64,000 nucleotides of DNA, from contig JAUWOR010000002.1 of the NCBI GenBank assembly GCA_030612025.1, positions 32,001 through 96,000 of the forward strand, given 5' to 3'. Positions within the stretch are counted from its first letter, which is position 1, and the number at the start of each line of letters is the position of its first letter. Origin of the DNA: Dehalococcoidia bacterium. Lineage in GTDB: Bacteria; Chloroflexota; Dehalococcoidia; GIF9; AB-539-J10. The notes below the pieces were generated by a model. The model was not told the origin of the DNA. It saw only the letters and a program-made list of their open reading frames with translations, and searched no databases. This document shows positions 907 to 8,318 of the stretch, one piece after another. Position numbers and translations under genes: made by a program.

Positions 907-953
907 ATATTGGCGTTTTATTATGTTTTTCTTTGAAGTCGTAATTCTTGTTT

Positions 954-1031
954 GCCCAGACTGACTAGATGGTTTATAAGCTGTATGGGCTAACGCCGGA
1001 AGAGATTGCGGTAGAGGGTAAGTTGAAATAG
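954..1031 (+). repeat. Degenerate repeat copy 1 encoding a type IIG R-M/methyltransferase C-terminal tail (AQTD*MVYKLYGLTPEEIAVEGKLK*)
   Basis: Translated by hand. Matches the IDxxVYxLYGLTxEEIxxVE terminal motif and aligns with 1634-1717. Has an internal TAG at 966-968. Confidence 0.75.
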
Positions 1032-1057
1032 ACAATACATAAAAGATAGGAGGAGCT

Positions 1058-1624
1058 ATGCGTTATCTAAATAACTCAGAACTATCCCAGTTCCACGACG
1101 CTTTGTTGAAAATGTTCCAAAAGCACGCCACCAATGTAGGTAAAAAGGATTGGGGACATCCGCACGGGATAGACTATTGTGACACCTACTCATTCAATAC
1201 TAAATATGGTACTTTGCGTATAGGTCACGAAGATTACGTACAGGAGGAGCGCTGGTGGATACCGATAGAGTTGAAAAAACAAGTTCCCAGTGATCAATTG
1301 TCAATCGCCTTTGAAATGAACATACCAAAAACAAGGAATATGCGTCTTGCAGTTCACTACGCAATTGACGAGAATAATATCGTCCATATACTTCATAAAG
1401 GGAAATTCACGGTTGGGCATGGCAGTGTGAGTATGTCCGAGTTTTTTAATTACTACCGAAAAATTCCTAGCAAATGGCAACTCATCAATTTTTACAGCTA
1501 TGACTATTTGGAGCTTGGGAGAGTTAACCTGATTTTAACCGATACCGAGTTCGTCCAATTGCTTGACTCGCTGGCTGAATTTGCTAGATACATCCCAAAA
1601 TTTAAGAGCATTTATAGGGAATGA
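1058..1624 (+). CDS. Hypothetical protein (188 aa)
   Basis: Strong RBS (aggagg) before the ATG; AT-rich ORF with no recognised family. Confidence 0.75.
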   Translation: MRYLNNSELSQFHDALLKMFQKHATNVGKKDWGHPHGIDYCDTYSFNTKYGTLRIGHEDYVQEERWWIPIELKKQVPSDQLSIAFEMNIPKTRNMRLAVHYAIDENNIVHILHKGKFTVGHGSVSMSEFFNYYRKIPSKWQLINFYSYDYLELGRVNLILTDTEFVQLLDSLAEFARYIPKFKSIYRE

Positions 1625-1633
1625 AATAAAAAC

Positions 1634-1717
1634 GAACGCCAAATTGACCAGATGGTTTATCAGCTCTACGACTTCACGGCCGAGGAGATTGCGGTGGTGG
1701 AGGGCATGAATAAATAG
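1634..1717 (+). repeat. Degenerate repeat copy 2 encoding a type IIG R-M/methyltransferase C-terminal tail (ERQIDQMVYQLYDFTAEEIAVVEGMNK*)
   Basis: Translated by hand. Shares gac-ag-atggtttat-agct...gagattgcggt...gaggg with 954-1031. Begins 9 bp after the stop of 1058..1624. Confidence 0.75.
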
Positions 1718-2066
1718 TAGATTCCCTCCGTTAGTGAAGGGCAGTAATTAATTCGAATTTGCGTAATCCGATAGCTTGAGATGCCTGGCCAAGGGCTTAA
1801 ACTCATCTGCAAATGAAGCATTGTCCCAGTAGTACAAAGCTATAGTCAGAGATTACTACGATACCTGGTGCTTTCTTGACACCTTACTGCACTTTTTAGC
1901 GCTCTGTGCAATCTACCGAAGAACGCCTTTGGAAGAGAATCCCACCGGCAAGCTAATCTGATCTCGTTCAGATAGATAGAGGACACTTTAAAGTATAAGG
2001 ACATCTTCTGCTCTAAACTTGGAACAGGTCCTCGCAGCTCTTTGTGTCCTTACGAACCTCCCCTAT

Positions 2067-2212
2067 TGTCATTGCGAGCCAAAGGCGCAGCAGTCCGTTC
2101 CTGAGATTGCTTCGTCGATTAGCTTCCTCGCAATGACAGGAAGGAGTGATTGGGGACGAGCCCCAACCCTACGAGATTGCTTCGTCGCTTACGCTCCTCG
2201 CAATGACAGGAA
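2067..2212. repeat. REP/RPE-like palindromic element cluster (GTCATTGCGAG...GAGATTGCTTCGTCG...CTCGCAATGAC)
   Basis: tgtcattgcgag at 2067 is inverted relative to ctcgcaatgaca, which occurs twice. Near-identical direct copies at 2103-2142 and 2173-2212. Confidence 0.8.
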
Positions 2213-2321: not shown

Positions 2322-2840
2322 TTGAAGCAAGTGAAGCTAGAGGAACTTCCTAAGGAGACCTTGATAGAATTAGCCAGAATGTATGCTCGAAACTGGCAAA
2401 CCTTAGACGGGCTGTGGTTTCGAAACGTTGAAGCCCAATACGGGCTTGAAGCAGCGGTCAAGCTAGATTTAAAGAATTGGGAAAGGCAATCCGTGGTAGA
2501 AGCAGAAAGGATTAAGAAAATACTTAACTTAACCAAGGGTGGGCTTCCCTCTGTTCTCAAAGTTTTAAGTCTTATGAGCTGGCAACTTGTCTCCCCAATC
2601 TTTGACCTTGAGGAGGAAAGTCCCCAGAAAATCGTCTTTTATTACCCTCGCTGCCCCGTTCAGGAAGGCAGGAAGAGGCAGGGTAAACAGGAATTTCCTT
2701 GCAAGACCATGAAACTAACCCTCCTATCCAATCTCGCCAAGGTAGTTGAACCCAAGGCAGCAGTGAAATGCCTTATATGCCCCCCCGACCCTCACCCTGA
2801 CAAGTTCTGGTGCAAATGGGAACTTACTATGAAGGAATAA
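2322..2840 (+). CDS. DUF6125 family protein
   Basis: DGLWF motif, CPVQEGRKRQG...FPCK, and CPPDPHPDKFWCKWE C-terminus. Confidence 0.7.
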   Translation: MKQVKLEELPKETLIELARMYARNWQTLDGLWFRNVEAQYGLEAAVKLDLKNWERQSVVEAERIKKILNLTKGGLPSVLKVLSLMSWQLVSPIFDLEEESPQKIVFYYPRCPVQEGRKRQGKQEFPCKTMKLTLLSNLAKVVEPKAAVKCLICPPDPHPDKFWCKWELTMKE

Positions 2841-7638: not shown

Positions 7639-8318
7639 TAGTCGCAGAGCAAAAGCCATTGGATGAAATAAGACGTATGATTGCCCCTTACGAGAAGATA
7701 TTAATACTTGGCTGTGGCACTTGTATGACGGTGTGTAATGCTGGTGGCGAGAAAGAGGTCTCTGTGCTCCATAGTGCATTGAGGGTGGCTCAGGCTAGAG
7801 ATGGTGATGAAACTCACAGTTTCCTGGAATATACAGTGAAACGGCAGTGCGAATTTGAATTCTTAGACATGCTCGTAGACAAAGTCAAGGAAATGGATGC
7901 CATTCTTTCGTTAGGCTGTGGGGTTGGGGTACAGGTGCTAGCCGAGCGCTTCTCAGATACACCCATTTTGCCCGGCGTAAACACGTCTTTTATGGGTGCG
8001 TCTAAGGAGTGGGGTGTTTGGGATGAGCGATGTGCTGCCTGCGGTGATTGCAGACTGGCCGAGACTGCTGGCATCTGCCCCATTACTAGATGCGCCAAGG
8101 GCATACTTAATGGTCCCTGTGCTGGTAGCAAGAACGGTAAATGCGAGGTGAATAAGGATACGGACTGCGCCTGGATACTGATTTATGAGCGCCTGGAGAG
8201 ACTAGGGCAACTGGAGAAAATGCGCCGATATTATCCCCCCAGGAACTTTCGCACCATCCCCAGGCCAAGGAGGCTCGTGAGCAAAGCTGATATTGATCTC
8301 GGAGGGAACGATGGCTAA
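7635..8318 (+). CDS. metV: Methylenetetrahydrofolate reductase Fe-S/zinc-finger subunit MetV
   Basis: GCGTCMTVC and CAACGDC...GICPITRCAKGILNGPCAG...CEV...CAW (MTHFR C-terminal/MetV motif); adjacent to metF. Confidence 0.88.
   Translation: MIVAEQKPLDEIRRMIAPYEKILILGCGTCMTVCNAGGEKEVSVLHSALRVAQARDGDETHSFLEYTVKRQCEFEFLDMLVDKVKEMDAILSLGCGVGVQVLAERFSDTPILPGVNTSFMGASKEWGVWDERCAACGDCRLAETAGICPITRCAKGILNGPCAGSKNGKCEVNKDTDCAWILIYERLERLGQLEKMRRYYPPRNFRTIPRPRRLVSKADIDLGGNDG

Follow-up and report, generated by a model that had tools for sequence, protein, structure and literature searches.

Near the start of a 64,000-nucleotide stretch of Dehalococcoidia DNA, here called the window (C5:32001-96000 of genome G000), the last codons of a restriction-modification (R-M) gene recur behind genes of other kinds. 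How does the end of one gene come to be reiterated between unrelated neighbours? A first-pass annotation of the letters had placed two degenerate repeats 47 and 9 nt past the stop codons of two unrelated genes, the first copy with a stop of its own, had read them as C-terminal tails of a type IIG-like R-M enzyme and had proposed an integron-like array of cassettes. Both repeats were located at these positions. Directly upstream of the window an intact type IIG-like gene was found which ends in the same motif. This confirmed that the two repeats, tails 1 and 2 in the following, are orphan copies of an R-M gene's 3' end, the gene being of the Eco57I type (type IIG-like). The surroundings were analysed in an 18-kb region, L001 (C5:18001-36000), in which a coordinate equals the window position plus 14000. 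The gene order is NYN (162 aa), the IIG gene with its own end (tail 0), GIY-YIG (153 aa), a gene for a 404-aa protein, tail 1, a gene for a 188-aa protein and tail 2. The GIY-YIG gene begins 1 nt past the stop of the IIG gene. The positions of the features are collected in Table 1.

Tail 1 starts 47 nt past the TAA (904-906) of the 404-aa gene, and the 188-aa gene follows 26 nt downstream. Its translation is QTD, a stop, MVYKLYGLTPEEIAVEGKLK and a final stop; the in-frame TAG is at 966-968 and one codon is lost in VVEG. Tail 2 begins 9 nt after the TGA (1622-1624) of the 188-aa gene, in the same frame, and translates to NKNERQIDQMVYQLYDFTAEEIAVVEGMNK and a stop. The two genes which flank the tails are unrelated to one another and to the parent IIG gene. 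Tails 0 and 2 are the most alike of the three copies, with 84% DNA identity over 88 nt in a repeat search and 89% over a 72-nt core. Tail 1 is the odd one, matching the other two at 74-76% over 62 nt in the repeat search and at 64-76% across both comparisons. Tail 2 differs from tail 0 at 8 of the 72 core nucleotides and none of these lies in a conserved motif residue, which suggests that tail 2 was a working gene end until recently. The whole genome (1,400,681 bases, six frames) was scanned with a position-specific scoring matrix (PSSM) of 24 residues, whose training set consisted of tails from other loci only. At a score cut-off of at least 12 four sites were found. Three of them are tails 0, 1 and 2, the fourth ends another long open reading frame (ORF) on contig C15. 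Because there are only four sites in the genome and three of them are here, the repeats are real and not due to chance.

Table 1. Coordinates of the parent gene, the tails, the accessory genes and the right flank of the island. PSSM, score in the genome-wide tail scan.
Feature	Window	C5 or L001	Strand	Remarks
Parent type IIG-like gene, 1074 aa		C5:27994-31218 = L001:9994-13218	+	Upstream of the window; ends ERQIDQMVYQLYDLTPDEIVVVEGSIK and stop
Tail 0 (third copy)		L001:13130-13217		True end of the intact 1074-aa ORF; PSSM 84.6
404-aa accessory gene	1-906	C5:31692-32906 (whole gene)	+	3' 301 codons in window
Terminator-like hairpin and T-run	899-925	L001:14899-14915 plus TTTTATTATG	+	Straddles stop of 404-aa gene, upstream of tail 1
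Orphan tail 1	951-1031		+	Decayed; corresponds to the final ~26 codons of a type IIG-like gene; PSSM 43.1
188-aa accessory gene	1058-1624		+	Member of a stand-alone family of ~187 aa
Orphan tail 2	1625/1634-1717		+	Well-kept copy of the last ~29 codons and stop; PSSM 81.8
Post-tail 2 sequence	1729-1976		+	Directly after the parent tail in metagenome contig X9
Right copy of island-bracketing repeat	2058-2460	L001:16058-16460	+	Left copy at L001:8121-8600
Intact DUF6125 gene	2322-2840		+	Right island flank; PF19620, E 4.3e-43; 5' end is the duplicated target

The parent protein matches the Pfam families Eco57I (1.5e-36), N6_Mtase (4.2e-18), MmeI_Mtase (1.8e-9) and TaqI_C (1.3e-21), and the PADLOC profile REase_MTase_IIG at 1.9e-262. 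A gamma-class N6-adenine methylase and a TaqI_C-type recognition domain share one ORF, i.e. the arrangement of a single-polypeptide enzyme. A Pfam nuclease domain was sought in residues 1-500 and not found. The motif IDxxVYxLYGLTxEEIxxVEG ends 13 ORFs of about 950-1250 residues at the loci examined. For these loci the claim that such an ending is typical of Eco57I/TaqI-like C-termini was borne out.

The same architecture exists elsewhere. At 12 of 32 loci with homologues of the 188-aa protein (termed 187-aa proteins) the gene lies 25-45 nt behind a tail. The tails before these genes are mostly the ends of ORFs of ~950-1100 aa; the rest are at a contig end or on short ORFs. The metagenome contig L004 carries four tails in the order IIG-tail, 63-aa gene, tail, 84-aa gene, tail, 187-aa gene, tail and DUF429; its cargo genes start 24-48 nt after a tail stop and end 0-12 nt before the next tail. 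A Planctomycetota metagenome-assembled genome (L034) has IIG-tail, 187-aa gene, degenerate tail, a GIY-YIG gene (52% identical to that of the window locus) and GmrSD, i.e. the same parts as the window locus in another order. The 63-aa gene of L004 is found directly behind the 187-aa gene in L009, L010, L026 and L028. The first-pass annotation had called for further gene-plus-tail units with variable cargo in other genomes, and these were found in L004, L034 and the arrays described below. It had also named the lack of a parent gene, the lack of further copies and a constant gene order as signs against a cassette array; a parent, further copies and differing orders were observed. The stacked layout it described is real and general. 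Its phase, gene followed by tail, is better read as tail followed by gene because of the short and similar distances of the 187-aa genes at the 12 loci and of the L004 cargo from the preceding tail.

The IIG proteins at these loci are ~28% identical to the parent (L034, 52% in part), while the 187-aa proteins are 58-68% identical. Cargo and IIG body are thus decoupled and evolve separately. Across loci, the DNA identity of the 72-nt tail cores is 75-93%. The junction of the 188-aa gene with tail 2, TGA-AAT-AAA-AAC-GAA-CGC, is common to the window and L004. In seven of the nine loci with a trace of a tail behind the 187-aa gene (the seven are L034, L003, L006, L015, L016, L022 and L027) it is degenerate, truncated or internally deleted. 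The shared junction and these remnants indicate that this tail has long been carried along with the gene and decays as a rule.

The prevalence of tails was examined in two phyla with a 35-letter degenerate tail pattern at up to two mismatches, the reversed pattern serving as control. In the phylum of the window 42 of 401 genomes matched, with 58 listed matches (control, 1), and 6 of the 42 had same-strand clusters within less than 3 kb. In the phylum of the L034 genome 45 of 301 genomes matched (control, 2), with such clusters in 8 of the 45. Array loci were picked from these scans for two same-strand matches; hence, their same-strandedness is partly due to selection, which does not affect the order of intact and orphan copies. 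In all 14 regions fetched from the scans tails with short upstream ORFs lie between genes. The largest array, in G493 (L051), has nine tails within 12.7 kb behind an IIG gene of the parent's subfamily; its cargo comprises AAA_13, an M78 peptidase and DUF4411 pair, a radical SAM protein, ParE and DUF3800, and a second locus of this genome has ParE, RelA_SpoT and MazF genes. Three genes of the G493 array are on the opposite strand, whereas the cassettes are co-oriented in the window locus and in L004. In G151, NYN and IIG genes are arranged as in the window locus and are followed by two orphan tails and DarT-Macro; one orphan tail is fused to a cut gene of a major facilitator superfamily (MFS) transporter. 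The cargo is variable and mostly of defence or toxin-antitoxin type.

Two further observations were made in these arrays. First, G307 (L046) has a 123-nt tail-region unit in three near-identical tandem copies, and G386 (L047) a 272-nt unit in 2.3 near-identical copies, in both cases with no cargo between. Second, two small ORFs, L005:7300-7974 (225 aa) and L051:8696-9319 of G493 (208 aa), combine an HSDR_N-like PD-(D/E)XK core with a ~60-residue IIG C-terminal module. They come from different phyla and are homologous to one another (36% identity over 152 residues, E 1e-15); they may represent a mini-protein family or recurrent internal deletions.

Are the orphan tails then the debris of lost genes? 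Defence islands gain and lose R-M genes, and the tails might be decay remnants of several tandem IIG genes, with no recurrent mechanism behind them. The stop and the lost codon of tail 1 are in keeping with decay, as are G697, in which the IIG gene is broken into four pieces, and L003, which is simply a split gene. The order and the kind of the fragments speak against it. At 11 of 11 loci where an intact tail-bearing ORF of at least 400 aa was in view, the intact copy is the 5'-most; all 17 orphans at these loci lie downstream of it and on its strand. Eight further loci have 23 tails on short ORFs and no such intact ORF in the fetched stretch; some of these tails are real gene ends at contig starts or belong to split genes. 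When 15 IIG proteins were compared by tblastn with 16 array regions, only C-terminal fragments of about 19-104 residues emerged, ending 0-7 residues from the IIG C-terminus (one at 25), and scraps of N-terminal, methylase or recognition-domain regions were not found in any of the 16. The orphans are mostly 19-70 residues long and the source genes about 1000-1250. Further, the differences between tails 2 and 0 spare the conserved motif residues. Decay as the sole explanation is, accordingly, highly improbable.

New genes seem to dock recurrently at the end of the IIG gene. We favour, as the probable explanation, recombination at the conserved tail homology by which old tails are shunted downstream, analogous to the C-terminal displacement of Rhs loci. 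Among genes whose products reach only ~28% protein identity to the parent, the DNA of the tail stretch is still 75-93% identical, from which we infer that recombination lands at the tail. The last ~80-90 nt would be kept alike among otherwise diverged IIG genes, and recombination between foreign and resident DNA would land there. An incoming unit of tail plus cargo, which could be a circle (Campbell type) or a fragment carrying tail homology on both ends, would recombine homologously with the tail already in place. The outcome would be the gene with a tail, the new cargo, and the old tail displaced downstream. Repeated entry would build up stacks in which displaced tails would decay unless they were refreshed by conversion. 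At the window locus the last event was probably the entry of a composite block, GIY-YIG-404-tail 1-188, into a single tail that is now split into tail 0 and tail 2; the likeness of these two and the decay of tail 1 fit one such insertion. A dedicated recombinase would be unnecessary; a RecA gene is present in G000.

Natural variants of the locus were looked for in contigs (Logan contigs, not reads) of metagenome runs such as X5 and X9. A 435-nt contig of X9, from another study, consists of L001:13055-13207, then 22 other letters, then L001:15729-15976. This form is without the GIY-YIG gene, the 404-aa gene, tail 1, the 188-aa gene and one tail. In the 248-nt flank behind tail 2 it differs at 3 positions. 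In X5 a 4540-nt contig was observed in which L001:12050-13089, the recognition-domain region, has given way to 1088 other letters; the match to L001 resumes about 40 nt ahead of the tail and carries on through the cassettes. This contig holds a natural specificity-domain allele of the same R-M gene. The breakpoints of X9 and X5 are both at the tail. Two other kinds of joint were not used: X5 13161->15682 (L001), one side of which is only 23 letters long, and joints such as 8159->16173 (L001), which derive from a dispersed REP-like repeat (REP, repetitive extragenic palindrome) with depths in the thousands.

The cassette-free form with its one tail copy would also be expected if the tails were a freshly duplicated target, that is, if cargo had been inserted with long target duplication or if the tail had first been duplicated locally in tandem and the gap then filled. 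R-M units inserted with direct repeats of more than 30 bp and without mobility genes are among the cases described by Furuta, Abe and Kobayashi (2010; PMC2853133), the island here is bracketed by a repeat of about 400-480 nt, and the tail region of G307 and G386 is present in tandem copies that are 94-99% identical. Such an origin predicts that the tails around one insert are the most alike; instead, pairs with tail 1 reach 64-76% and tails 0 and 2 reach 84-89%. The flank shared with X9 differs at 3 of 248 positions, and a duplicate of that age should be near-identical. In addition, the junction of the 188-aa gene with tail 2 is common to L004, with remnants in seven more loci, so the 5' part of tail 2 travelled with the cargo. 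As an account of the tails, target duplication is therefore unlikely.

Several findings weigh against recombination at the tail as well. The tail part of the X9 contig differs from tail 0 at 20 of 153 letters, and X9 therefore did not arise simply by excision from this strain. The contigs, in which a circle junction was not sought, showed neither a recombination intermediate nor a circle. The runs of perfect identity between tails 0 and 2 are only 14-15 nt long, little for an exchange of the RecA type if the two have not diverged since. At five loci of the 187-linked tail clade the detectable left edges of eight orphans cluster at -79 to -89 nt from the stop, which would be expected also from a site-specific cut. 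The cargo-free tandem repeats of G307 and G386 are not predicted, and the origin of the first tail-flanked unit is not accounted for.

The clustered left edges lead to the machinery. The first-pass annotation had suggested an integron-like capture system; in its strict form the tail would be an attachment site for a specific recombinase or nuclease that is supplied in trans or encoded in the cargo. Apart from the left edges, the regular spacing in L004, the recurrence of the same cargo in differing orders and the nuclease-type cargo of the window locus (GIY-YIG and the possible PD-(D/E)XK protein) are in line with such a system. IS200-like Y1 genes were observed directly after the last tail at L056:7254-7763 (G481; 5.6e-7) and, weakly, at L046:7612-8295 (G307; 5.9e-4). 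These may be coincidence or cargo, and they occur in just 2 of 17 array loci. No member of the Phage_integrase, resolvase and DDE families appeared when ORFs of the 17 other array loci were scanned, those below 150 aa only in part (in one set of loci, ORFs of at least 150 aa). Among the 10 island ORFs, too, no integrase (PF00589), resolvase or DDE transposase was found. The three tyrosine-recombinase matches of G000 are on contigs C16, C8 and C12, none on C5, and no serine recombinase was found in this genome. An attC-like fold of the tails was rejected: nine of ten folds of seven tails had z-scores of -0.9 to +0.6; the + strand of tail 1 gave -2.9, a value the other copies do not share. Nor do the fragments have a fixed length. 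They vary from about 19 to 104 residues, the left edge in G228 is at -158 nt, and in G493 the homology reaches upstream by at least 45 nt more than in L004. The cut MFS transporter gene fused to a tail in G151 indicates untidy joining. We conclude that the arrays are integron-like in layout and not in machinery; a dedicated system of this kind is quite unlikely.

A broader proposal would make the type IIG tail a true cassette-exchange site at which small defence and toxin-antitoxin cassettes are captured, reordered and lost across phyla. The process could consist of breaks, made by the R-M/helicase-nuclease system or by cargo nucleases, that are repaired on tail homology. We hold this to be rather unlikely; if true, the loci would be integrase-free 'defence integrons'.

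Alternatively, the orphan tails could be kept for a function of their own, as a read-through docking peptide, as a module of small proteins or as a cis element for the next gene. The 188-aa gene and the 84-aa and 187-aa genes of L004 share the reading frame of the tail that follows, with one stop between, each cargo gene begins shortly behind a tail, and the small ORFs of L005 and G493 carry the ~60-residue C-terminal module. However, the 187-aa genes inherited their in-frame junction from a single event and do not count as independent cases, the frames of the 63-aa and 404-aa cargos do not agree with those of their tails, which carry stops, and the tail behind the 187-aa gene is damaged in seven of nine loci as described above. 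No sigma-70-like site lies in a tail (scan of L001:12900-16400, 8 sites versus 8.1 expected) and L001:4800-16500 contains no Rfam match; promoter and RNA structure were thus dropped as candidates. A comparison of the 187-aa family with the IIG C-terminal region by hhalign gave a probability of 0.1. There is very little chance that function has kept the tails.

What do the cargo genes of the window encode? The 404-aa protein had no match in Pfam, PADLOC, NCBIfam or PHROGs. Proteins of about 400 aa in 32 clusters make up its conserved family, and D137, E151 and K153 are invariant in an alignment of 22 sequences. In the sample of its phylum the gene was found in 1 of 401 genomes, i.e. G000 only. 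The AF2 model has a pLDDT of 85.8. Compared with known structures, it gave Foldseek E-values of at least 0.016 and VIA-wide Z-scores up to 5.5, with many PD-(D/E)XK nucleases among the weak matches (Z 4-5.5). A PD-(D/E)XK-like nuclease core is thus possible in the model, as a lead only. The terminator-like hairpin at the end of the gene is a consensus match only (1 site versus 2.8 expected in shuffles). The family of the 188-aa protein counts 79 clusters with 47-100% identity and ends in FKxxYR. Searches for a function in Pfam, PADLOC, NCBIfam and PHROGs were negative (Atlas best score 0.85), and among 41 relatives only G000 has the gene. Its AF2 model (pLDDT 90.5, pTM 0.88) has no convincing relative among solved structures (Foldseek E at least 0.08, best VIA-wide Z 5.1), and the predicted fold may be undescribed. 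The possibility that the 187-aa protein is itself a cut-off IIG C-terminal region was rejected; tblastn had run from the tail into the 187-aa ORF, a BLAST over-reach in view of the hhalign result.

The cassettes are part of a 7.9-kb island. Behind tail 2 there are about 340 nt without an ORF, followed by REP-like repeats and the DUF6125 gene. The direct repeat of ~400-480 nt which frames the island has copies that are 88-94% identical and contains REP-like palindromes and the beginning of the DUF6125 gene, namely its promoter region and 45 codons. This bracket resembles the type of signature called insertion with long target duplication. At the left end, L001:8463-9401 is a 312-aa ORF in which the first ~45 DUF6125 codons run into the C-terminal ~270 residues of a PLD+SNF2-type helicase. 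The helicase part is 52% identical to the helicase before the IIG gene of G493 and also matches phrog_26785. In relatives the IIG gene is partnered by such a helicase gene; as only the last ~270 residues are left, the usual partner of the parent gene is truncated in G000. A dispersed palindromic element, GTCATTGCGAG ... CTCGCAATGAC, was observed on both sides of the island (window 2058-2212; L001:5025-5230 and 8121-8300). Its 11-mer has 100 copies in 1.4 Mb versus about 0.7 expected, and its word depths are in the thousands in four sediment and seep metagenomes.

The region varies within the genus. In G001 the entire 12-kb region between pyruvate kinase and DUF6125 is missing. G003 has kept the left part, with the IIG gene cut after about 107 codons; at L043:8098-8500 an SGDL microhomology links the cut gene to an orphan copy (91 nt) of the pyruvate-kinase 3' end, and two other genes follow this copy. 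The joint looks as if one-sided homologous recombination had been combined with illegitimate recombination at the same hot spot. As the duplicated 5' end of DUF6125 and 3' end of pyruvate kinase show, this variable region tends to duplicate the ends of flanking genes, and the R-M tail is no special case. We count this tendency in favour of recombination at the tail.

If the IIG gene end is a recurrent docking point, an orphan tail would be a simple sequence handle for unknown defence and toxin-antitoxin genes. It would explain the growth of defence islands without integrases and would extend C-terminal displacement from polymorphic toxins to R-M loci. The 187-aa, 404-aa, 63-aa and 84-aa proteins are without a family, the former two also without a clear structural relative; since their family is not known, they are candidates for new defence functions. 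In the literature searched, with subscription journals and supplements outside the search, no description of reiterated type IIG gene ends was found, and a 2025 EcoSal review (PMC12707154) contains neither 'target duplication' nor 'displaced'.

The tail arrays share with integrons variable genes that each have a recurring short site, a platform gene behind which these genes are stacked (in one orientation in the window locus and in L004) and a cargo rich in defence and toxin-antitoxin genes. They differ in that no IntI-type integrase was found, the site is coding and lacks an attC-like fold, fragment lengths vary, and some arrays hold opposite-strand genes and cut gene fragments. A second comparison is the tandem accretion of integrative or cis-mobilizable elements at the 3' ends of tRNA and tmRNA genes. 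There, an incoming element restores the gene end and displaces the old one, tandem arrays result, and tyrosine integrases, which one or more of the elements carry, act on a fixed core site. Copies of a gene 3' end separate tandem entries in both cases; here an integrase was not found.

R-M insertion with long target duplication, as set out by Furuta et al. (2010; PMC2853133), is similar in its direct repeats, which greatly exceed the target sites of transposons in length, and its lack of mobility genes, and the X5 allele matches the allelic recognition-domain swaps in type IIG genes of the same work. In those insertions an arbitrary target is duplicated, whereas here the repeat is the R-M gene's own end in up to nine copies, which separate non-R-M cargo and are diverged rather than fresh. 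Those cases cover the outer repeat of the island and the X5 allele and not the reiterated tails.

The closest parallel is with Rhs loci. For these, Jackson et al. (2009; PMC2935791) proposed that a circular intermediate recombines homologously with the conserved part, so that a new unit is inserted, the old one moves downstream and core fragments of differing length stay behind. In Rhs loci (and those of CDI/MafB type; CDI, contact-dependent inhibition) the intact gene comes first, orphan units on the same strand are each headed by a fragment of the conserved part, fragment length varies, conserved and variable parts evolve separately, and no recombinase is adjacent, all as observed here. Unlike the Rhs core, which is upstream of the variable tip, the anchor here is the extreme 3' end of the ORF, and the host gene is an R-M or methyltransferase gene. 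The variable unit of Rhs is a toxin tip with its immunity gene; here it consists of separate genes (nucleases, toxin-antitoxin pairs, GmrSD, AAA_13) with their own starts. For this reason we regard the tail arrays as an analogue of Rhs C-terminal displacement and not as a member.

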